From a virus (Duplodnaviria; Caudoviricetes), in the IMG/VR virus record IMGVR_UViG_3300032318_002859, positions 1 to 62,371 of that record: a stretch of 62,371 bases of DNA; one strand, 5' to 3'. The notes beneath the pieces were generated by a model. It worked only from the letters and a program-made list of their open reading frames with translations, was not told the DNA's origin and did not search any database. Made by a program: the position numbers and the translations under genes. Positions 1,635 to 54,522 of the stretch are shown in pieces (within the stretch, counting starts at the first letter, position 1; each line of letters begins with the position of its first letter).

Positions 1635-2050
1635 TGAACTGGATCGAGGGCCTGCTGGATCCCCTGCTGGATCGCCTCGCCACGGAGCTGGCGCTCAAGG
1701 TCCGCGCCCAGCTGGATGGTGCGATTGATGCCGCGCTGGATCGGGCGGAAGACCGGATCGCCACGGCCTCCGAGGGGCTGGAGGAGCGGCTGCAGGCAGC
1801 GGCCACGAAGCCCATCGCAGACCTGAAGCTGGGGCTGGTCCTCCAGTTGCAGCATCAGGCGCTGGCGACCCTTGCACCGGGATCTCGACTCCTCACGAAC
1901 CAGGAGGTTGAGGAGGCGGCCAAAGCTGCCGGGATGACTCCCGCCGCAGACATGAGGGCCGCAATCACCTCCGCAGCCTCTTCGGTGCGTGCTGCCGCAG
2001 CGGACCGCCTGCGCAACCGCTTGAACTGGCCAAAGCGCCGTGATCGATGA
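1631..2050 (+). CDS. Hypothetical helical/coiled-coil protein
   Basis: Overlaps both neighbours by 4 nt; phage-like codon usage. Confidence 0.7.
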   Translation: MMNWIEGLLDPLLDRLATELALKVRAQLDGAIDAALDRAEDRIATASEGLEERLQAAATKPIADLKLGLVLQLQHQALATLAPGSRLLTNQEVEEAAKAAGMTPAADMRAAITSAASSVRAAAADRLRNRLNWPKRRDR

Positions 2051-4788
2051 GCCGACACCAGGCCCTGCAGGATCGTCTCCTGGCCATCGAGGCTCAGCTG
2101 GCGGTGTCCGCCCCGGTCGCCCCGGGCGCCCTGCCCCGGCCGCGCCGGCCTGGCTCCATGCGGCACGATGCCGCCGACCAGGTTTCACCGGTGCTGCAGC
2201 AGCTGCTGGCCGAGGTGCTGCCGGGTGCGTTGGTGCTCGACTGGCGGCAAGAGGGTGCTGGCCATGCCGGGCGGATGGCGGCCGATGGCCTGGTCTTCCG
2301 CTTCCGCGTTGATGCCGCCGGTGTCGGCTACAGGCCCGCCTGGGACGGCGTGCTGGAGCGTGGCTGGGAGATCCGATCCGACTCCTTCCTTCAGCTGCGG
2401 GCCCCTGATCTGCGGATGGACTTCCGCGGCAGTCCCCCCGCCTCGGGCCAGAAACGAAAATGCAAGACGGGCTATGGCTGTGGCAGCACCTGCATCTCCC
2501 TGCAGAAGGAGTGCCGGATCAGCCCGGGCAGCGCGCTGGGGAAGGCCCGGCTGCGGCGGCTGCAGCAGCTGGCGGCCGCTGGCGACAGGGGCGCCCAGGC
2601 CACCGCCGAGCAGGTGCAGGCCTCCAGGGGTGCGGCGGCGGCAGCGCGGCAGAAGGAGCGCAACACCAAGCGGGTGGAGCAGCTGCTGGCACGGCCGGAA
2701 ATCGCCGAATTCCTGCGCACTGGCAAGCTGCCAGCCGGAGCCAACAGCTCCACAGTGCCGGGCACCGTCCGGGAGATGAAGCCAGGGGAGATCAGCTTCG
2801 ATCCCAGTCGCTTCCAGTACAAGCTCAATGCCACCGCCACCACCGGCGAGGTGGGCAGCCTCTCGGGGGTGCGGAAGTGGGACGCCAACCTCTCCGGCGT
2901 GATGAGCGTCTGGAAGGACCCGGGCGACGACAAGGTCTACGTGATCAACGGCCACAATCGGCTGGCCCTGGCCAACCGCCTGGGGGCGGAGGCCGTCACC
3001 GTGCGGTTCTTCAATGCCGCCAATGCCACGGAGGCCCGGGCGATCGGGGCCCTGCAGAACATCGCCGAGGGCGCCGGCAGCCCGATGGATGCCGCGAAGT
3101 TCTTCCGCGACACCGGCATCAAGAGCCAGGCGGATGTGGAGGCCCGTGGCCTGCCCCTCGGCAGCGGCCAGGCCGACAAGGGCCTGAAGCTCAGCCGGCT
3201 GCCTGGGGACGTGTTCAACGCCGTGGTGCGGGGCGACCTGACGGTGAACCGCGGCGCGATCATCGGCGGCAGCGGTCTCGAGGAGGCGAAGCAGCGGGAG
3301 GTGTTCAAGATGATCAGCTCCCGCAAGGGCATCGCTGATCAGACCCTCCAGGAGCTGGTGGAGCATGCCGCCGCCAGCCAGCAACGCACCCAGACCACGA
3401 TGAGCCTCTTCGGGGAGACCCAGGAGGCGAAGGACAACCTGATCACCCGGGCCAAGCTCTCCGCCGGCCTGAAGGCCAAGATCAGCCGGGAGAAGCGGCT
3501 GTTCAGCACCGTCAGCAAGGCCCGGGCAGCCACCACGCTGCAGCAGAAGGGGGGCAACGTGATCAACCAGGAGCAGAGCGCCAAGGTGGCCGGCGAGGCC
3601 AGCGAGGCCCTGGGAGTGTTCGAGCGGCTGAAGAGCTCCGCCGGCCCGATCAGCTCGGCCCTCAACCGTGCCGCCGATCGGGTGGAGGCCGGCGAATCAG
3701 AGGCCAAGGTGCGGCAGGAGCTGGAGCGGGATGTCTTCGCGGCGGTGCAGGCGGAGCTGGAGGCGGTGGGGCTGCGCAAGCGGCCCCGGGCCGACTCCCT
3801 GGAAACCCGGATTGATGCTCTCAAGCGAAAGTGCCAGACGGGCTATGGCTGCGGGTCGAGCTGCATCTCGATGAGCAAGCAGTGCCGCAAGACCCCCGGC
3901 GCCGGTCCCGGCCAGCAGAAGATGCAGCGCATCCTCGCCCTGGCAAAGCCAGGCCTGGCCATTCCGGCAACAGCCGCACCATCAGAGCAAAAAGCACAGC
4001 CCAAACGGGGTCAGCCTGCTCAGGCTGCCAAGCCCGCGAAGGCCGATCAGCCTGCCAATGCATACAACGTCGAGCAAGAGTTCGAAAAATCCACGAAAAT
4101 CCTTGGCGAAACAATGACCGCGGCTGTCAAGCTGACGAAAGGGCCACCGCCTGGTGTTGTGAAGAAAGGCCGGATTGGAGAAAACGAGGCGGAGATTCTC
4201 AAGAAGCTTGCAGATAGTGGAGTCACGCCGCAGCTACTAGGGGTGTCGATCACAGGCAAGTATTCCAGAGGCATGGGGACCGTTCTCTCTGCCAACGGCT
4301 TTCTGGCTATGTCGCAAATGGAAGGCGTCCCCTACGTGACAATGCAGTTCACGGCTTCAGACGAAGAGAAAATCAAGGCAAGTGAAGAATACATCCGAGT
4401 CAGAAAGAAGATCCACTCTGAAGGAGTGGCGCACAACGACATGCACGCTGGGAACTTTTTTTATGACCGCAAGACTGGCAAGGGCGGCGTCGTTGACTTT
4501 GGGCTCTCGGAAATCGGCTATAGAAAAGCCTTGATAGAGGCCCTGGGGACGCTTGATGGCAAGGACTTTCAAGCAAAGAGCACAGGCATCAGTAGGGACC
4601 AGTCTCCGATGATGGCTAGGCTTTGGGATAATACGAGGAAGGTAGTGAAGACTATGGAGAAAGAGCACGGGATAAGGGGGGACTTGCCCAAGCTGAGATC
4701 AAGAGAGAAAAAGGTTGACGCCTATCTGGGCTCACTTTCTGAAGACCAGGCGCGTAAGCTGGTTGCGGCTATCTACGAGGGGCTATGA
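2047..4788 (+). CDS. Polyvalent protein: N-terminal domain, Cys4 motif, ParB/Srx-like domain, second Cys4 motif, C-terminal protein-kinase-like domain
   Basis: VYVINGHNRL (ParB-like); VVKKG, HNDMHAGN, VDFGL (kinase); two KCxTGYGCGSxCISxxKxCR motifs. Confidence 0.85.
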   Translation: MSRHQALQDRLLAIEAQLAVSAPVAPGALPRPRRPGSMRHDAADQVSPVLQQLLAEVLPGALVLDWRQEGAGHAGRMAADGLVFRFRVDAAGVGYRPAWDGVLERGWEIRSDSFLQLRAPDLRMDFRGSPPASGQKRKCKTGYGCGSTCISLQKECRISPGSALGKARLRRLQQLAAAGDRGAQATAEQVQASRGAAAAARQKERNTKRVEQLLARPEIAEFLRTGKLPAGANSSTVPGTVREMKPGEISFDPSRFQYKLNATATTGEVGSLSGVRKWDANLSGVMSVWKDPGDDKVYVINGHNRLALANRLGAEAVTVRFFNAANATEARAIGALQNIAEGAGSPMDAAKFFRDTGIKSQADVEARGLPLGSGQADKGLKLSRLPGDVFNAVVRGDLTVNRGAIIGGSGLEEAKQREVFKMISSRKGIADQTLQELVEHAAASQQRTQTTMSLFGETQEAKDNLITRAKLSAGLKAKISREKRLFSTVSKARAATTLQQKGGNVINQEQSAKVAGEASEALGVFERLKSSAGPISSALNRAADRVEAGESEAKVRQELERDVFAAVQAELEAVGLRKRPRADSLETRIDALKRKCQTGYGCGSSCISMSKQCRKTPGAGPGQQKMQRILALAKPGLAIPATAAPSEQKAQPKRGQPAQAAKPAKADQPANAYNVEQEFEKSTKILGETMTAAVKLTKGPPPGVVKKGRIGENEAEILKKLADSGVTPQLLGVSITGKYSRGMGTVLSANGFLAMSQMEGVPYVTMQFTASDEEKIKASEEYIRVRKKIHSEGVAHNDMHAGNFFYDRKTGKGGVVDFGLSEIGYRKALIEALGTLDGKDFQAKSTGISRDQSPMMARLWDNTRKVVKTMEKEHGIRGDLPKLRSREKKVDAYLGSLSEDQARKLVAAIYEGL

Positions 4789-8746: not shown

Positions 8747-9052
8747 ATGGCAGCGCCCACCCTGGCCGAATTCCTCGACCGCTTTCCAGAGATGGAGGTG
8801 CACACCCACGTACAGCTGGAGCAGGCCCTGCAGACCGCCGGCCGGCGCTGCAGCGAGGCGGTCTGGGGTGATCTGCACGGCGATGGGGTGGGCCTGTTCG
8901 CCGCCCACCTCATCGCTGCGCGCATCCGAGAGGTGGGCGCCCAGGTGGGCCAGGCGGTGCCGTCCGCCGGCAGTGGCCTGGAGTCCACCCACTACGGGCA
9001 GCAGTTTGTCCAGCTGCAGTCCTGCCTGACGCTCACCGGCTTCCCGATCTGA
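8747..9052 (+). CDS. Head-tail adaptor (DUF4054-like)
   Basis: FLDRFPEM..W..GLFAAHLI..LESTHYGQQF. Confidence 0.8.
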   Translation: MAAPTLAEFLDRFPEMEVHTHVQLEQALQTAGRRCSEAVWGDLHGDGVGLFAAHLIAARIREVGAQVGQAVPSAGSGLESTHYGQQFVQLQSCLTLTGFPI

Positions 9053-11508: not shown

Positions 11509-12129
11509 CTATTCCAATTGATTGCGGCAGATAGCAAAAAGATCTGTGGAGTAAAGCGCAGGGATGCTACTGCTTAAATCGCCAGCCATAATTCGCTGTA
11601 ACTCTTGTTTAACGGCTAGTGCCCATCTGGATCTACGCTGAGTTAAATACATCAGCTGTGCTCTCGCATCAAAGTAGTTACGCGTCGCTTGCTGCAAAGA
11701 TAAGCCATTCGGCGCACCGCTAGCCGCCCTTGCAATCTGGCCTTCAATGACAGCCCTCGTGCCACCATAACCTGTTGAAGCAAAATTGCTTTGCTCCACG
11801 GCATCAAGCTGAATACGCGCTGTTTGCACAGCCCACTGCTGCTGTTCTATGGCAACCTCAAGCCTTGGTATATGAGTGTGCATGGCGTACAGGAAAGCAA
11901 CGTTTGGACTGGAGCCCTTACTAATCTCTGCGCAATGCGACTCAGCGAGATCCGCTTCGGTGGGTGCTGCCACTGTGCTTGACTGCGCACAAACCGAGTC
12001 AAGGCCACTAACAGCAGCAAAAACAAGAGCCATAGCAAGAGAAGAAAACCTTCTCACTGGTGCAACTTTTCCTGTGAAAGAAAGGGCAGAAGTGACGTGG
12101 CTTAAAAAGAGAAAGCGGTGTGGGTACAT
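11509..12129 (-). CDS. Lower-GC moron encoding a predicted exported/membrane protein
   Basis: Opposite strand within tail operon; hydrophobic RRFSSLAMALVFAAVSG segment; start uncertain. Confidence 0.6.
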   Translation of the reverse strand: MYPHRFLFLSHVTSALSFTGKVAPVRRFSSLAMALVFAAVSGLDSVCAQSSTVAAPTEADLAESHCAEISKGSSPNVAFLYAMHTHIPRLEVAIEQQQWAVQTARIQLDAVEQSNFASTGYGGTRAVIEGQIARAASGAPNGLSLQQATRNYFDARAQLMYLTQRRSRWALAVKQELQRIMAGDLSSSIPALYSTDLFAICRNQLE

Positions 12130-12188
12130 TAGTTCGTGATGGTGCAGGGTGGGATTGAGACCGCTTCGGCCCTGTTTCCCTTACTGTT

Positions 12189-12292
12189 GGACCGGGGGGA
12201 GGGTCGGCCCTACCCGCAAGGGCGGGCGCCGGGAGTGGCGTTGATGTGGCGTCATTCGGGCTCCGGTATCGGAGGCCCTTCCCCTTCCACCA
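12189..12292 (+). ncRNA. Candidate cloverleaf structured RNA with 3' ACCA
   Basis: 11-bp closing stem 12194-12204/12275-12285 enclosing three hairpins (GCAA, GAUGU and GUAU loops); several G-U pairs; TACTGT -10-like box at 12182. Confidence 0.55.
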
Positions 12293-12293
12293 C

Positions 12294-12320
12294 TTGACAA
12301 AAGACGAACTGCTGTACGCT
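12294..12320 (+). promoter_or_regulatory. Possible sigma70 promoter for KilA-N gene
   Basis: Perfect TTGACA at 12294; TACGCT 15 nt downstream (short spacer). Confidence 0.35.
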
Positions 12321-12379
12321 ATCAAAGTCTGGCGGCGACGCTGGGCCCCACATCTGCCCGCTTCGAGCGGGAGCCATTG

Positions 12380-13393
12380 ATGAACAGCACCCTCACCCTC
12401 AAGGGGATGGAGTCGCGCACCTGGAACGGTGTGGCGATCCAACGGCGGCCCGCCGACGGCTACGTGAACGCCACGGCCATGTGCAAGGCCTACGGCAAGG
12501 AATTCTCCGACTACCGGCGCCTTGACCGCACAACCCAGTATTTGCAAGCCCTCTCGACGTTCCTGGGAATTCCCAGGGACCTCCTGATCCAGTCGATCAC
12601 CACCGGGTTGAACGAGCTGCGGGGCACCTGGGTCCATCCCCGCATTGCGGTGGACCTGGCCCGCTGGCTCCACCCGGAGTTCGCCGTGTGGATGGACGGC
12701 TGGTTCCTGGAGAGCTTCACTCCCAGGCTCCCCGCTGATGCCCCGCCGGCCCCCGCAGTCCTGCCGAAACGGTCCCGTCAACGGGAGGTGTGGGAGGTGG
12801 GTGGCCCCGGCGTAGTCGTTCCCGGCGCGGCCCTGCTCTCAGCGCAGCTTACCGTGGTGCTTGACGCCTACACCATGCACATGGAAGCCGAGCACGAGAT
12901 GCTGCGGTTCCCGGGATGCCGGCCGTTCCGATCGCCCCGTGCTGCGACGAAACGCTTCCTCGAGTGGTTTGCCACCACTCACGGCAAGATCTGCCACGGA
13001 CAGCTGGCCCTTTCCTCCATTGGCCTGCCAGTGGCGTCCGTGGCCGCCCCTCCCCGGCCCCCCGCGCCTTCCCGCCCGGCACCGGCAGTGCCCGGGCCGG
13101 CTCCGCGCCCCTCGCGCTATCACCAGGCTCCTCCCGCCCCCCCTTCGCCCCCGGCGCCACCGGCGCAGGCACCACAACACGACGGCTACCGCCCCGGCGA
13201 TCTGATCACCGGCCCCGATCTCTCCCACCTGTTGGGCCTTGAGCCGAAGACCATCAACAAGTGGGCCGCCGCCCGCTCGATCGGTGCGGAACGCGATGGC
13301 TGGCGGCTCATCGGCCGCGGCAAGCTCTCCGCCGGCCAGCAGTGCGCCGTCTATCCGCCAGGCTGCGCCAGTTGGCTGTTCCAGAAGCTGTGA
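12380..13393 (+). CDS. KilA-N domain protein (antirepressor-like) with Pro-rich linker and C-terminal HTH-like segment
   Basis: DGYVNATAMCKAYGKEF..GTWVHPRIAVDLARWLHPEFAVWM. Confidence 0.9.
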   Translation: MNSTLTLKGMESRTWNGVAIQRRPADGYVNATAMCKAYGKEFSDYRRLDRTTQYLQALSTFLGIPRDLLIQSITTGLNELRGTWVHPRIAVDLARWLHPEFAVWMDGWFLESFTPRLPADAPPAPAVLPKRSRQREVWEVGGPGVVVPGAALLSAQLTVVLDAYTMHMEAEHEMLRFPGCRPFRSPRAATKRFLEWFATTHGKICHGQLALSSIGLPVASVAAPPRPPAPSRPAPAVPGPAPRPSRYHQAPPAPPSPPAPPAQAPQHDGYRPGDLITGPDLSHLLGLEPKTINKWAAARSIGAERDGWRLIGRGKLSAGQQCAVYPPGCASWLFQKL

Positions 13394-51173: not shown

Positions 51174-51473
51174 TCAGCGGCCCTCTGATGCGACGCCCAT
51201 CCGCCGCGGCGGATGCCACAACACGCGCACGGAGCGGGGAACGCCGGGGATGACCGAAATGGCCCCGGCCTTTGCCAGCTTCCGGAAATGCGCCTGCACT
51301 GTGGACGTGGAGGCCAGCCCCCGTGCCCGCATCACGTCCCGAAAGCTGGGTGGGATTTTGTGCTTCTTGATGTAGCCGCGCACGGCTTCAAGGATCAGCT
51401 GCTGCGCTGGGGTGAGCCCTCGTTCCGTCTGGATCTCGGCCGCGGCCACCAACGGCTTCCCCTTCTCCAACAT
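51174..51473 (-). CDS. LexA-like DNA-binding domain only
   Basis: LTPAQQLILEAVRGYI..PPSFRDV..GLASTSTVQAHFRKL..G..PRSVRVL; no peptidase domain. Confidence 0.85.
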   Translation of the reverse strand: MLEKGKPLVAAAEIQTERGLTPAQQLILEAVRGYIKKHKIPPSFRDVMRARGLASTSTVQAHFRKLAKAGAISVIPGVPRSVRVLWHPPRRMGVASEGR

Positions 51474-51528: not shown

Positions 51529-52452
51529 CTATGCCGATGGTGAGAACAGGCTCAGCTGCCGCTCGACCAGCATCCCGTCGCCCTCGCCAGGGGTCAGGCC
51601 GTCATGGTTGGCCAGCACTCGCGCCAGAGCCGTCCCTTTTGCCTCCAGCCGCACCGTTGCCGCCCTGGTGAGCCCCATGGCGCGGCTGACATCCGCATGG
51701 CTCTGGCCGGACAGCAACCGTGCCATCACCTCCTGAACATCGGGCCATGGCTGGAGAACCTCCAGCACCACCTCCCAGTCGTCGTCCGTGACATCGGCGG
51801 CCGGAGCGGCAACAGTGCTGCCCCAGCTCTCGCCGTCTTCATCTCCCCCCAGGAAGGCATCGAGCGAGATCACCTGCCGGACCGCGGCAGCCTTGCGCAG
51901 CAGCAGCAAATCCGCCGCAGAAAGATCCAGGGCCTCCATCGCTTCTGCATCCGTCGGTGAGCGGCCCTCCCGGGCGGTGAAGGCCTCCACCCACTGCCGC
52001 AACCGATTCATGCTGGCCGCCCGCTTCACCGGGACCTTCACGGGGCCGGAGGTATGCAGGAGCACATTCATGCTCTGCCGGATCCACCAGACCGCGTAGG
52101 TGGAGAACGTACACCCCCGGGCCGGATCGAATTTTTCCGCCGCTCGGATCAGCCCGATCGCGCCTTCCTGAATGAGGTCTTCCACATCCAGCGCCACGAT
52201 CGTGCGGATCGAGAACGCGCGAGCCTGCCTCGCCACCAGCAGCATGTTTCGCGCCACCAGCTGATCACGGGCCCGCTGCCCCGCCCGCTTCAACCCTGGA
52301 GGCGGCTGCGTTTTCCCTTTCGCCACTTGCTCCGGTGACGGCTCCCAGTCCAACCAAGCCCGGATTGCCCGGCCCAGCAGGAGCTGCTCCTCCCGCGAGG
52401 GGATGGGCAGCCGTGCATAGGCCGCCAACAGGGAATCGAGTGACGAGCCCAT
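51529..52452 (-). CDS. RNA polymerase sigma-70 family factor (RpoD-like)
   Basis: DLIQEGAIGLIRAAEKFDPARGCTFSTYAVWWIRQ; ISLD. Confidence 0.93.
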   Translation of the reverse strand: MGSSLDSLLAAYARLPIPSREEQLLLGRAIRAWLDWEPSPEQVAKGKTQPPPGLKRAGQRARDQLVARNMLLVARQARAFSIRTIVALDVEDLIQEGAIGLIRAAEKFDPARGCTFSTYAVWWIRQSMNVLLHTSGPVKVPVKRAASMNRLRQWVEAFTAREGRSPTDAEAMEALDLSAADLLLLRKAAAVRQVISLDAFLGGDEDGESWGSTVAAPAADVTDDDWEVVLEVLQPWPDVQEVMARLLSGQSHADVSRAMGLTRAATVRLEAKGTALARVLANHDGLTPGEGDGMLVERQLSLFSPSA

Positions 52453-52554: not shown

Positions 52555-54522
52555 GTGGCGATCGGATTCCTGCAGTTTCCAGAGCAATCCGGCTACCGCT
52601 TGGATGGGGCACTCATCAATGTGCTCACCGGGCTGGGCACTGCCAAGGACCGGAACGAGGCGATCGGCGTCAAGCGCAGCCGCATCCTCTCCGAAGCTGC
52701 CGTCAACGCCCTCTACGAGCAGAGCTGGCTGATCCGGCGGATCGTTGACAAGATCCCCCAGCAGGGCACCCGCAGCGGCTGGGACCTGAGCGTGGGCGAC
52801 GAGACCTCCTCCAAGATGAAGGCCGCTCTCGATGACCTGGCCGGCTGGACGGAAAAGCTCCGTCTCCGCCGGTCCCTGGCCGCGGCATGGAGATACAGCC
52901 GCCTGTTTGGCGGCGGGGCGCTGATCCTGATCGCCGATGACCGCACGCCGATCGATCAACCGCTCAACCTCCGGCGGTTGCGCACCATCCACGGCCTCTA
53001 CCCGATCGATCGCTGGCGCCTTTACCCCGCCTCCGGCTGGTCAGGCCTGGGGGAACCGGAACTCTATTGGTTCTGGACCCAGAAGGATCGGGATCTCGAG
53101 CAGCTGAACGAGCAGGCTGGAGCCACGCAGGTGACCAGCAGCGGCCTGGGCATCACCGATGCCACCCAGGTGGAAATCCATGGCAGCAGGGTGATCCGCA
53201 TCCAGGGGCTTCCCTGCTCCTGGCGATCCGAGCAGGAGCGGCAGGGCTGGGGAATATCGGTGGTGGATCTGGTCTGGGATGTCTTCAAGAGATGGGAGAC
53301 GGGCCAGCAGTCCGCCAGCGACATCCTCCACGACTTCGACCTGGTGGTTCACACGCTGCCGGGCCTGGCCAACATGCTCGCAGCAGGGGGAGAAGACAAG
53401 CTCCGCCAGCGGCTGGAGGCCAACAGCATGGCCCGCTCCACCATCGGCGCCTACCTGCTGGACGGCAACGAAACGCTGACCAACCTCAACCGCTCCGCCG
53501 CCGGCATCGCCGACATCCTCACCTCCCTGAAGAGCGAAATCACCGGCGCCAGTGGCCTCCCGCACACCCTGCTGTGGGGCGAAAGCCCCTCGGGCCTGGG
53601 GGCTGACGGCCGCAGCGAACAGGCCGCCTTCGGGAACGAGGTGGCCGATCTGCAGGCGGAAACGCTCATGGATCCCCTCCGGCGGATCTACGAGCTCGCC
53701 ATGGCCTGCTCTGACGGGCCTTGGGAAGGGAAGGCGCCGCCGGCCGACTGGGAGATCACCTTCCGCCCCACCTACACCCCCACGGAGGACGAACAGGCCG
53801 ACTTGCGGCAGAAGGTGGCCACGGCCGACAGCCAGTACATCACGAACCAGGTGCTGCAGCCCAACGAGGTGGCGCTGGCGCGGTTCGGCAAGCCGCGCTT
53901 CAGCCTCGATACCACCCTGCTGAACCGCAATCCGGATGGGTCGATCCCCGCGCCGAAGGACACCCCACCGGTGGACTTCGGCGGCTCCCTTGAGGACGAT
54001 CCGGCGGCCGCGGGCTCAGAGGCCGCGGCGGCCGACCAGCCTCCCCCCAGCGAGCCCTCGTTCTCCGGTGCCGAACCCGCGCCAACGCCCCCCCGCAACG
54101 ATGCGGAGGAGGAGCCGTGCTGCAGCGACTGCGAAGCCCGCGCTCAGGAGCTGGCCCAGCAGATCACGGAGCACCGGGGGCGCCGGAAGCGCCGCCGCGA
54201 TGAGGTGCCCCGCAACGATGCCGCCGGCCAGGTGCATCAGATCCTGGGGGTGACCGTGCGGATGGATGGGCCGGGCATCGGCCGCCTGCAGGGCCCCTAT
54301 GGGCAGACCCTGCCCTACCCCGTGGCGGTGGGCCCGGATCTCAGCGGCATGTGGGAGGTGTTCGAGCCGGCCAGCGGCGCCTACCTGCTGGCCCTGGGCC
54401 ACCAACACCAGCGGGGCCTTCGGGATGCCATCGGCGCCGCCGCCACCATCCGCCGAATCGATGGCATCGACCTGGTGGCCATGGGCGCAGTCTGCGATTC
54501 CTACCTTGCTGGAGAGGCCTGA
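52555..54522 (+). CDS. Portal protein (DUF1073-type) with C-terminal extension
   Basis: NVLTGLGTAKD, YSRLFGG, IHGSRVI, ASGLPHTLLWGESPSGL. Confidence 0.9.
   Translation: MAIGFLQFPEQSGYRLDGALINVLTGLGTAKDRNEAIGVKRSRILSEAAVNALYEQSWLIRRIVDKIPQQGTRSGWDLSVGDETSSKMKAALDDLAGWTEKLRLRRSLAAAWRYSRLFGGGALILIADDRTPIDQPLNLRRLRTIHGLYPIDRWRLYPASGWSGLGEPELYWFWTQKDRDLEQLNEQAGATQVTSSGLGITDATQVEIHGSRVIRIQGLPCSWRSEQERQGWGISVVDLVWDVFKRWETGQQSASDILHDFDLVVHTLPGLANMLAAGGEDKLRQRLEANSMARSTIGAYLLDGNETLTNLNRSAAGIADILTSLKSEITGASGLPHTLLWGESPSGLGADGRSEQAAFGNEVADLQAETLMDPLRRIYELAMACSDGPWEGKAPPADWEITFRPTYTPTEDEQADLRQKVATADSQYITNQVLQPNEVALARFGKPRFSLDTTLLNRNPDGSIPAPKDTPPVDFGGSLEDDPAAAGSEAAAADQPPPSEPSFSGAEPAPTPPRNDAEEEPCCSDCEARAQELAQQITEHRGRRKRRRDEVPRNDAAGQVHQILGVTVRMDGPGIGRLQGPYGQTLPYPVAVGPDLSGMWEVFEPASGAYLLALGHQHQRGLRDAIGAAATIRRIDGIDLVAMGAVCDSYLAGEA

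Follow-up and report, generated by a model that had tools for sequence, protein, structure and literature searches.

RNase P reportedly releases the c4 RNA, known from the heteroimmunity of bacteriophages P1 and P7, from the transcript of the icd-ant operon. Two further small phage RNAs, P4 CI and P22 sar, control immunity or antirepressor synthesis by base-pairing, and P4 CI, too, is reported to undergo RNase P processing. Here, a candidate c4-like RNA is described that lies directly upstream of a KilA-N domain gene in the IMG/VR virus record IMGVR_UViG_3300032318_002859, a complete virus with direct terminal repeats and a G+C content of 64.6%, the whole of which (62,371 base pairs, bp) was analysed and is referred to as the window.

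In the P1 record, the elements are arranged in the order of promoters, sites a1 and b1, the 77-nucleotide (nt) C4 RNA, a2 (TTGACAG), b2 (GTTAGTGA), icd (73 amino acids, aa) and ant1; the start of ant1 overlaps the end of icd, and kilA follows with its own promoter. Reading of the sequence places the antisense site a' (CUGUCAA) in the junction strand J3/1 of the folded RNA and b' (UCACUAAC) in the loop of the second hairpin. The c4 paradigm is one of repression, according to the annotation of the P1 record and PMC8546580. The table of PMC2864571 lists c4-type antisense RNAs solely from Proteobacteria and the phages of these bacteria.

In light of the comparisons presented below, positions 12194-12285 of the + strand would encode a bipartite antisense regulator of ~92 nt that resembles c4, is produced as a separate transcript and represses the KilA-N operon. 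Based on sequence evidence, we assign this reading a probability of roughly 0.8. The 337-aa KilA-N protein gene that follows (Table 1) is the presumed regulated gene.

A conserved three-way junction upstream of the KilA-N gene

A search of IMG/VR with the KilA-N protein yields 129 confirmed relatives, from which 80 loci were retained, and by blastn the core of the element is found again ahead of KilA-N in most of these loci. The consensus built on 36 distinct aligned copies is a three-way junction of ~90 nt with 27 pairs. The closing stem P1 comprises 8-12 bp and is followed by one unpaired G, the hairpin P2 is capped by a G-Y-A-A loop, and the first pair in the 5-bp base of P3 is an invariant G.U. 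A hypervariable hairpin (P3b) with a 3' bulge is stacked on P3, one subgroup having an extra hairpin instead of the bulge, and a 6-nt single strand (J3/1) completes the junction. Standard pairs occupy 99.7% of the 972 cells, and 13 of the 27 pairs are changed on both sides, which supplies the covariation among homologues that a first-pass annotation of the window had named as a check. None of 500 column shuffles reaches the observed pairing, number of changed cells or covariation score, and as many two-sided changes as observed arise in 22 of the 500; when the partners are slid by 1-3 columns, the pairing falls to 34-47%.

A covariance model built from the aligned copies, termed R1, matches in 74 of the 80 loci, in all cases upstream of KilA-N and on its strand, and two of the six loci without a match (L030 and L076) end close upstream of the gene. 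Additionally, a scan that starts from the RNA was performed with a degenerate core pattern, which retrieves 85 stretches in IMG/VR, and R1 confirms 82 matches in 79 new loci. Same-strand KilA-N genes follow 57 of the 73 matches that have at least 700 nt downstream. The other 16 comprise two Bro-N genes whose products carry a zinc ribbon at the N-terminus, five cassettes in which a different small open reading frame (ORF) is the first or sole gene, five copies of a 67-nt form without P3b, two orphan RNAs, one deletion derivative and one weak match. The RNA/leader cassette is therefore a portable module of control that accompanies KilA-N or Bro-N genes in most cases. An alternative helix, UGAAACCG/CGGUUUCA, was considered in the subgroup with a short P1 and set aside, as it is broken in L031, L035, L026b and L045.

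The first-pass annotation had described a tRNA-like cloverleaf at this site, and its stems, GCAA loop, leader hairpin and GAUGUGG/CCACAUC complementarity are all present in the sequence where it placed them. On the + strand of the window, the minimum free energy (MFE) fold indeed has four arms (-62.9 kcal/mol, z -3.0, with 3 of 200 shuffles as stable), whereas the four-arm shape is not formed on the - strand (z -1.1). The preference for the + strand that had been read from the G-U pairs is thus upheld, and the invariant G.U pairs of the consensus, together with the location of all R1 matches on the strand of the downstream gene, point the same way. As a family fold the cloverleaf does not stand: the consensus is a three-way junction in which the fourth arm is absent, and the third inner hairpin, UCCG-GUAU-CGGA, is a peculiarity of the window that lies outside the consensus of 36 copies. 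The energies calculated for the window are -52.7 kcal/mol for the consensus junction and -57.3 kcal/mol for the cloverleaf, and a cloverleaf alternative may exist in the window but is not conserved. The likeness to tRNA is not borne out, as ARAGORN finds 0 tRNA or tmRNA genes in the window and the fourth arm is not conserved. GGA (12189-91) and UCC (12286-88), which had been proposed to pair and leave a 3' ACCA, are complementary, and ACCA occupies 12289-92; because the -10-like box at 12182-87 precedes P1, this extension lies upstream of the putative transcription start. The extension and the fourth hairpin were both rejected as family features.

The suggestion that the RNA may belong to an undescribed family agrees with the Rfam results. 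The Rfam C4 model (RF01695) scores P1 c4 at 68.8 bits, which serves as a positive control; the same model gives no match in the window or in 8 homologous loci, the gathering threshold not being reached. No family of Rfam 15 reaches its gathering score in the window or in the 8 homologous loci, RF01695 gives no match at E <= 1 in these loci, and at E <= 10 the region 11900-12700 contains no C4 match and nothing at the site. Low-scoring matches to other models (DUF3800-XI, miRNA models, Chlorobi-1, sX13) are located elsewhere, fall below threshold and were discarded. In the reverse direction, R1 has 0 matches in 49.8 kb of P1 at E <= 10. A blastn search of the region against the phage collection returns no match, and an exact 34-nt pattern has 0 matches in IMG/VR.

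Complementarity to the KilA-N leader

The apical loop of P3b is complementary to a single-stranded stretch of the KilA-N leader (contact 1), as noted in the first-pass annotation. The contact consists of 7 bp in the window, with a duplex energy of -11.8 kcal/mol, and its target lies directly 3' of leader hairpin 1 in all subgroups. A comparison within the window's own subgroup reveals six different loop/target pairs at the same position within nearly identical flanks, namely GAUGUGG/CCACAUC in the window, UCUGU/ACAGA in L114, UUGGU/ACCAA in L158, UGAGU/ACUCA in L010, GAUCGGG/CCCGAUC in L017 and UUGGA/UCCAA in L018, and other subgroups behave alike.

An unrestricted search for complements anywhere downstream does not separate own from cross pairs. 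The target window was therefore set by homology as the 18 nt after the conserved leader hairpin, and 44 unique pairs were examined in this manner; their longest Watson-Crick runs have a mean length of 5.70, as opposed to 3.81 when loops and targets are crossed. Runs of at least 5 are found in 39 of the 44 own pairs versus 20.7% of 1880 cross pairs, and 0 of 5000 permutations reach the observed mean; four copies that are dropped by the hairpin rule conform when read by eye. The set from the RNA-first scan, which shares many contigs with the set found through KilA-N and is not independent of it, gives 5.65 versus 3.70 in 40 unique pairs. The heptamer CCACATC itself is present in 21 copies in the window, compared with 11.8 expected, and 0 of 100 shuffles reach 21.

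A second contact, which adds to the observations of the first-pass annotation, connects J3/1 with the loop of leader hairpin 1; in the window, UCG (12269-71) pairs with CGA (12336-38). Across homologues, the J3/1 types AUCG, ACUG, (U)ACC, AUCC and AUGC co-occur with loops ending in CGAU, CAGU, GGU(G), GGAU and GCAU, respectively. Runs of at least 3 are observed in 42 of 44 own pairs versus 376 of 1544 cross pairs, and in 38 of 40 versus 155 of 1124 in the RNA-first set. At least five subgroups contain close relatives that have switched from one J3/1 type to another (for example, the window and L010, L005 and L002, or L062 and L025). The lengths range from 5 to 8 bp for contact 1 and from 3 to 5 bp for contact 2. 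By covariation, these results show that the RNA makes two intermolecular (or long-range) contacts with the leader. Phages that are almost identical elsewhere differ strongly in the hypervariable contact nucleotides, which fits immunity-type determinants.

Leader hairpin 1 has 6 of 8 pairs changed on both sides among 20 leaders. Hairpin 2, with a core of CCCGCU-UCG-AGCGGG at 12357-71 ahead of the ATG at 12380, has 4 of 6 invariant pairs, so that covariation neither supports nor opposes it and it is conserved in sequence only. The folding energy of the leader gives a z score of +0.2. The target of contact 1 is located 25-32 nt before the start codon in the window and overlaps the ribosome-binding region in other subgroups. 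The earlier proposal of an analogue of P1 C4 that acts on the KilA-N leader gains support from the covariation, the second contact, the topology and the placement of the sites.

Putative transcription units

Motifs of the form TAnnnT are found within 15 nt upstream of the RNA in all 50 unique homologues but in only 0-4 of 50 in control windows, and the box tracks the 5' end of P1 at a distance of 6 nt in both the long-P1 and short-P1 forms. In 43 of 45 unique leaders, a similar box precedes hairpin 1, with 4-9 nt between its end and the hairpin, compared with 0 of 45 in control windows. The presence of such boxes before both the RNA and the leader hairpin indicates two tandem transcripts; the RNA and the KilA-N mRNA, with their ends and abundance, are accordingly treated here as putative separate transcripts on the strength of conserved motifs. 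The 6-nt distance between box and P1 suggests a primary 5' end for which 5' processing is not required. The TTGACA upstream of the KilA-N box is spaced at 13-15 nt in the window's subgroup and at 19 nt in others, so its role is uncertain.

In approximately 26 of 51 unique loci, a strong GC-rich hairpin starts within 7 nt of the RNA end, and L026 has a canonical terminator after the RNA. The spacing between RNA and leader varies from 41 to 308 nt.

A second TAnnnT-like box (for example, TAGGGT, TATGAT or TAAGGT) is present ~25-35 nt upstream of the -10 box of the RNA in one subgroup (L054, L052, L051, L047, L022, L064, L065, L055, L057, L035 and L038). Transcripts from this box would carry a 5' leader of ~30 nt to be trimmed, and RNase P could act there.

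Table 1. Positions of the RNA element, its putative promoters and the KilA-N leader and gene in the window
Feature	Position	Strand	Remarks
-10-like box TACTGT	12182..12187	+	Putative own promoter of the RNA; 6 nt before the first base of P1
Structured small RNA core	12194..12285	+	Three-way junction of ~92 nt; R1 match of 76.7 bits, sole match in the window
P1 closing stem	12194-12205/12274-12285	+	Part of core; GGGGGGAGGGU (12194-12204) pairs with GCCCUUCCCCU (12275-12285), 11 bp
P2 hairpin	12207-12227	+	GCAA loop at 12216-19
P3 base	12228-32/12263-67	+	GCCGG pairs with CCGGU
P3b variable hairpin	12233-57	+	Part of core
Antisense site 1	12243..12249	+	GAUGUGG, apical loop of P3b; complementary to 12348-54
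J3/1 junction strand	12268-73	+	AUCGGA, unpaired in consensus; antisense site 2
3' tail UCCACCA	12286..12292	+	ACC directly after P1 in other long-P1 homologues; putative 3' end
TTGACA, -35-like	12294..12299	+	15-nt spacing to the -10-like box, non-canonical; conserved in the window's subgroup
-10-like box TACGCT	12315..12320	+	Putative KilA-N promoter; 6 nt before leader hairpin 1
Leader hairpin 1	12327..12346	+	Loop GCGA at 12335-38; putative 5' end of the KilA-N mRNA; J3/1 target
Single-stranded P3b-loop target CCACAUC	12348..12354	+	Follows hairpin 1 immediately on the 3' side in every subgroup (homologous position)
Leader hairpin 2	12357..12373	+	CCCGCUUCGAGCGGG; overlaps Shine-Dalgarno-like GGGAG at 12369-73
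KilA-N domain gene	12380..13393	+	337 aa; Pfam PF04383, E = 4.3e-21; PHROG 129 'transcriptional regulator'

Proposed mode of action and alternative explanations

According to the model that we favor, the RNA would be transcribed from its own -10 box, starting at or beside the first base of P1, and the KilA-N mRNA would start ~130 nt downstream from the second -10 box, so that its 5' end would be a hairpin. J3/1 of the RNA would pair with the loop of this 5' hairpin, and the apical loop of P3b with the single-stranded stretch just 3' of it. By analogy with P1 c4, the pairing would block ribosome loading and perhaps lower the stability of the mRNA. In the lysogen, and likewise in incoming phages that share the specificity, the antirepressor-like KilA-N protein (Bro-N in relatives) would thereby be kept off. 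The model takes the RNA to act in trans, to repress the initiation of translation and to have a role in immunity.

Several observations weigh against this model. The direction of regulation, repression, is taken from the c4 analogy only, and KilA-N is a putative antirepressor. In the window, the MFE fold buries J3/1 in the window-specific hairpin and lies 4.6 kcal/mol below the consensus fold, and contact 2 is only 3 bp (-2.4 kcal/mol). The heptamer CCACATC has its 21 copies on both strands of the window, so that the 7-nt match alone is weak and becomes significant only through covariation among the homologues. L007 and L016 are exceptions to contact 2. L026 has two RNA copies in tandem, the first of which fits the adjacent leader at neither of the two contacts. 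A strict scan of 11900-12500 for sigma-70 promoters and terminators gives 0 sites, and neither the window nor its subgroup has a terminator-like hairpin between RNA and leader; read-through and pairing in cis are therefore possible there. Additionally, a 67-nt form without the variable arm exists, and the core may therefore function beyond presenting antisense loops.

If such read-through were the rule, the same two pairings would form only in cis within one transcript, and the junction would be a part of a long structured 5' untranslated region, serving as a sensor or protein-binding element that sets the conformation of the leader, and not as a diffusible small RNA. This explanation accommodates the fact that RNA and gene are always adjacent and on the same strand, as well as the lack of a terminator-like hairpin between them in the window's subgroup, and it has a parallel in the excision of P1 c4 from the icd-ant transcript, as indicated by the P1 annotation and by the mechanism generally attributed to it. 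It is nevertheless improbable in our view, and more so than the activation considered below, because 43 of 45 leaders have a conserved -10-like box 6-7 nt ahead of their hairpin, roughly half of the unique loci have a strong hairpin or terminator after the RNA, and the RNA-leader spacing ranges over 41-308 nt. Orphan and extra RNA copies without a matching leader also argue against pairing in cis, as does the hypervariability of the contact nucleotides between near-identical relatives, which is what specificity in trans predicts.

The sign of the regulation is not fixed by any computed result, and the pairing might instead activate or stabilise KilA-N expression, for example by protecting the 5' end of the mRNA or by opening hairpin 2, which bears the Shine-Dalgarno-like sequence. 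The location of the window's target 25-32 nt before the ATG, with no overlap with the GGGAG that sits in hairpin 2, would be compatible with such an effect. In other subgroups, however, the pairing reaches GGAG or the last 10-20 nt before the start (10 pairs including G.U in L046), the c4 precedent is one of repression in the P1 annotation and PMC8546580, and constitutive-looking promoters for an activator of a kil or antirepressor gene fit a temperate phage poorly, which makes activation unlikely. A tRNA-like element, an attachment-site remnant, a structure at the DNA level or a chance fold and complementarity of GC-rich sequence would account for the four-arm MFE with its 3' ACCA, and GC-rich shuffles do fold strongly (mean -51 kcal/mol), the leader having a z score of +0.2. 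The compensatory changes and invariant G.U pairs, which indicate an RNA on the + strand, the covariation of both intermolecular contacts, and the failure of ARAGORN to find a tRNA or tmRNA together with the unconserved fourth arm leave these explanations scarcely credible.

More speculatively, the cassette could represent a natural set of riboregulators, dozens in number and mutually orthogonal, that work through two contacts, diversify fast and mark out immunity types among temperate picocyanobacterial phages. They would be ancient relatives of c4 that can no longer be recognised by sequence, orphan copies (the first copy in L026, L169 and L118) would silence the antirepressor of rivals, and the 67-nt form would reflect a second function of the core; we put this forward as a tentative extension that is rather more likely to be wrong than right.

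Minimal forms, orphan copies and associated genes

The 67-nt minimal form is present at L098:12277-12343(-), L130:5412-5478(-), L167:7708-7774(-), L104:9368-9434(-), L161:3089-3155(-), L146:14543-14609(+) and L086:285-352(+). P1, P2 and J3/1 (AUCGGA) are retained in these copies, the variable arm is swapped for a short GCCGC-GUGU-GGCGG hairpin, and no leader hairpin or KilA-N gene is recognisable downstream. The conserved core may thus have a function of its own.

Extra or orphan RNA copies are located at L026:2565-2655 and 2688-2778, L169:483-569 and 8803-8892, and L118:5136-5223(-). Their loop and J3/1 mismatch the adjacent leader, or no leader is present at all, and no cognate leaders for the orphan RNAs were found among the sampled loci. 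L173:9997-10085(-) is a deletion derivative in which the RNA is joined by its 3' part directly to the final ~45 codons of a KilA-N gene; this remnant is homologous to the C-terminus of the window protein, and the leader and most of the gene are lost.

The KilA-N gene and its neighbours have no PADLOC or NCBIfam match. A BstA-like abortive-infection role was considered and rejected, since it is based on a PHROG match of the N-domain only and nothing is found in PADLOC or NCBIfam. Pfam assigns KilAC to P1 Ant1, KilA-N plus KilAC to P1 KilA, and Bro-N to the L127 protein, from which the regulated proteins here and in P1 appear to be one modular antirepressor-like set (KilA-N, Bro-N and KilAC). 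L108, L127 (ORF L127:5730-6515), L045 and L051 share an N-terminal zinc-ribbon-like segment (C-x2-C ... WC-x3-C), which is fused to either KilA-N or Bro-N. In one subgroup, the first gene after the leader is an ORF of 62-70 aa with the motif RALWELGYPNDFDT (L020:2740-2925, L046:2578-2763, L148:4630-4827 and relatives), which ends just before the KilA-N start and has no Pfam, PADLOC or NCBIfam match.

Source phage and host

Genes of the window include those for an XisF-like large serine recombinase, a LexA-type DNA-binding protein of 99 aa and a sigma-70-like protein, along with structural genes of the siphovirus type. With the pattern matches described next, these genes mark the virus as a temperate phage of picocyanobacteria. 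In contigs from a collection with one genome per species, the core pattern occurs in 15 stretches, 7 of which score 65-99 bits with R1. Six of these 7 are in Synechococcaceae, Cyanobium or other cyanobacterial bins, and the seventh is on a 3-kb contig of an Oligoflexales bin. The remaining pattern matches (Nocardia, Desulfatibacillum, Mesorhizobium and others) score at most 21 bits and were treated as chance.

The island formed by the RNA and KilA-N is located between a major-tail-like gene and the genes of the tail chaperone and tape measure. Directly upstream of the RNA, on the opposite strand and in a stretch of lower G+C, is an ORF of 206 aa (11509-12129, -) for which Pfam, PHROGs, PADLOC and NCBIfam all return nothing; the tail gene block is broken up by this ORF along with the RNA and KilA-N. 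The 99-aa protein at 51174-51473 (-) consists of a LexA-type DNA-binding domain only, and its gene adjoins the sigma-70-like gene at 51529-52452 (-). This protein is a candidate for the repressor that the KilA-N protein might antagonise. Two genes have portal-type matches: the 913-aa protein at 2047-4788 (+) matches the end of PHROG 21, with weak kinase-like Pfam matches below threshold, and the 655-aa protein at 52555-54522 (+) matches Phage_portal_3.

Comparison with c4 and other antisense RNAs

No literature linking c4-type RNAs to cyanophages or to KilA-N was found, as judged by titles and abstracts. What appears to be new is the c4 architecture and logic in a cyanobacterial host group, with a distinct transcription layout and a kissing-loop contact, in an RNA that is not in Rfam. 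If the proposed model is true, the c4-type mechanism would be extended to temperate phages of freshwater picocyanobacteria, in which the control of lysogeny is barely known, and the widespread KilA-N and Bro-N genes would gain a concrete regulator. More than 40 natural matched RNA/target specificities would be usable as candidate orthogonal riboregulators, and a regulatory RNA architecture could be seen to persist or re-evolve beyond the reach of covariance-model searches.

The likeness to c4 (RF01695, clan CL00128), which belongs to the immI operon c4-icd-ant, extends from the fold to the gene order. Both RNAs are three-way junctions with a long closing stem and a first hairpin capped by a tetraloop, which is UUCG in c4 and GYAA in the cyanophage RNA. 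The second arm stands on a 5-bp stem that opens with G.U, and GCCGG/CCGGU is found in the c4 consensus and the window alike. J3/1 measures 7 nt in c4 and 6 nt in the cyanophage RNA, and the 3' tail reads ..ACC (..CCACC in c4). One antisense site lies in J3/1 (a') and the other in the loop of the second arm (b'); the J3/1 target is upstream of the loop target, and the latter adjoins the ribosome-binding site of the first ORF. In P1, icd (73 aa) is followed by the antirepressor gene, and in several cyanophage homologues the 62-70 aa ORF is followed by KilA-N.

The differences are equally specific. No similarity in sequence or profile is detectable between c4 and the cyanophage RNA, in which the second arm is extended by P3b, an additional variable hairpin with a bulge on its 3' side. 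In the cyanophages, the upstream target sits in the loop of a hairpin, giving a kissing contact, whereas that of c4 is a linear site. Because the -10-like box lies 6 nt before P1, the cyanophage RNA would have no 5' leader to remove, unlike c4, and a separate putative promoter is present between the RNA and its targets. Decoy sites corresponding to a1 and b1 were not noticed in the cyanophages, although no systematic search was made for them. The host is a picocyanobacterium, whereas that of c4 is a proteobacterium.

Among other antisense RNAs, P22 sar is a true cis-antisense transcript that overlaps ant, whereas the cyanophage RNA is encoded on the same strand as its target. In the plasmid kissing-loop controllers CopA/CopT and RNA I/RNA II, loop contacts set specificity and incompatibility and are hypervariable among relatives. 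These controllers are opposite-strand transcripts fully complementary to their targets, whereas the cyanophage RNA is encoded upstream on the same strand and matches its target in two short complementary patches.

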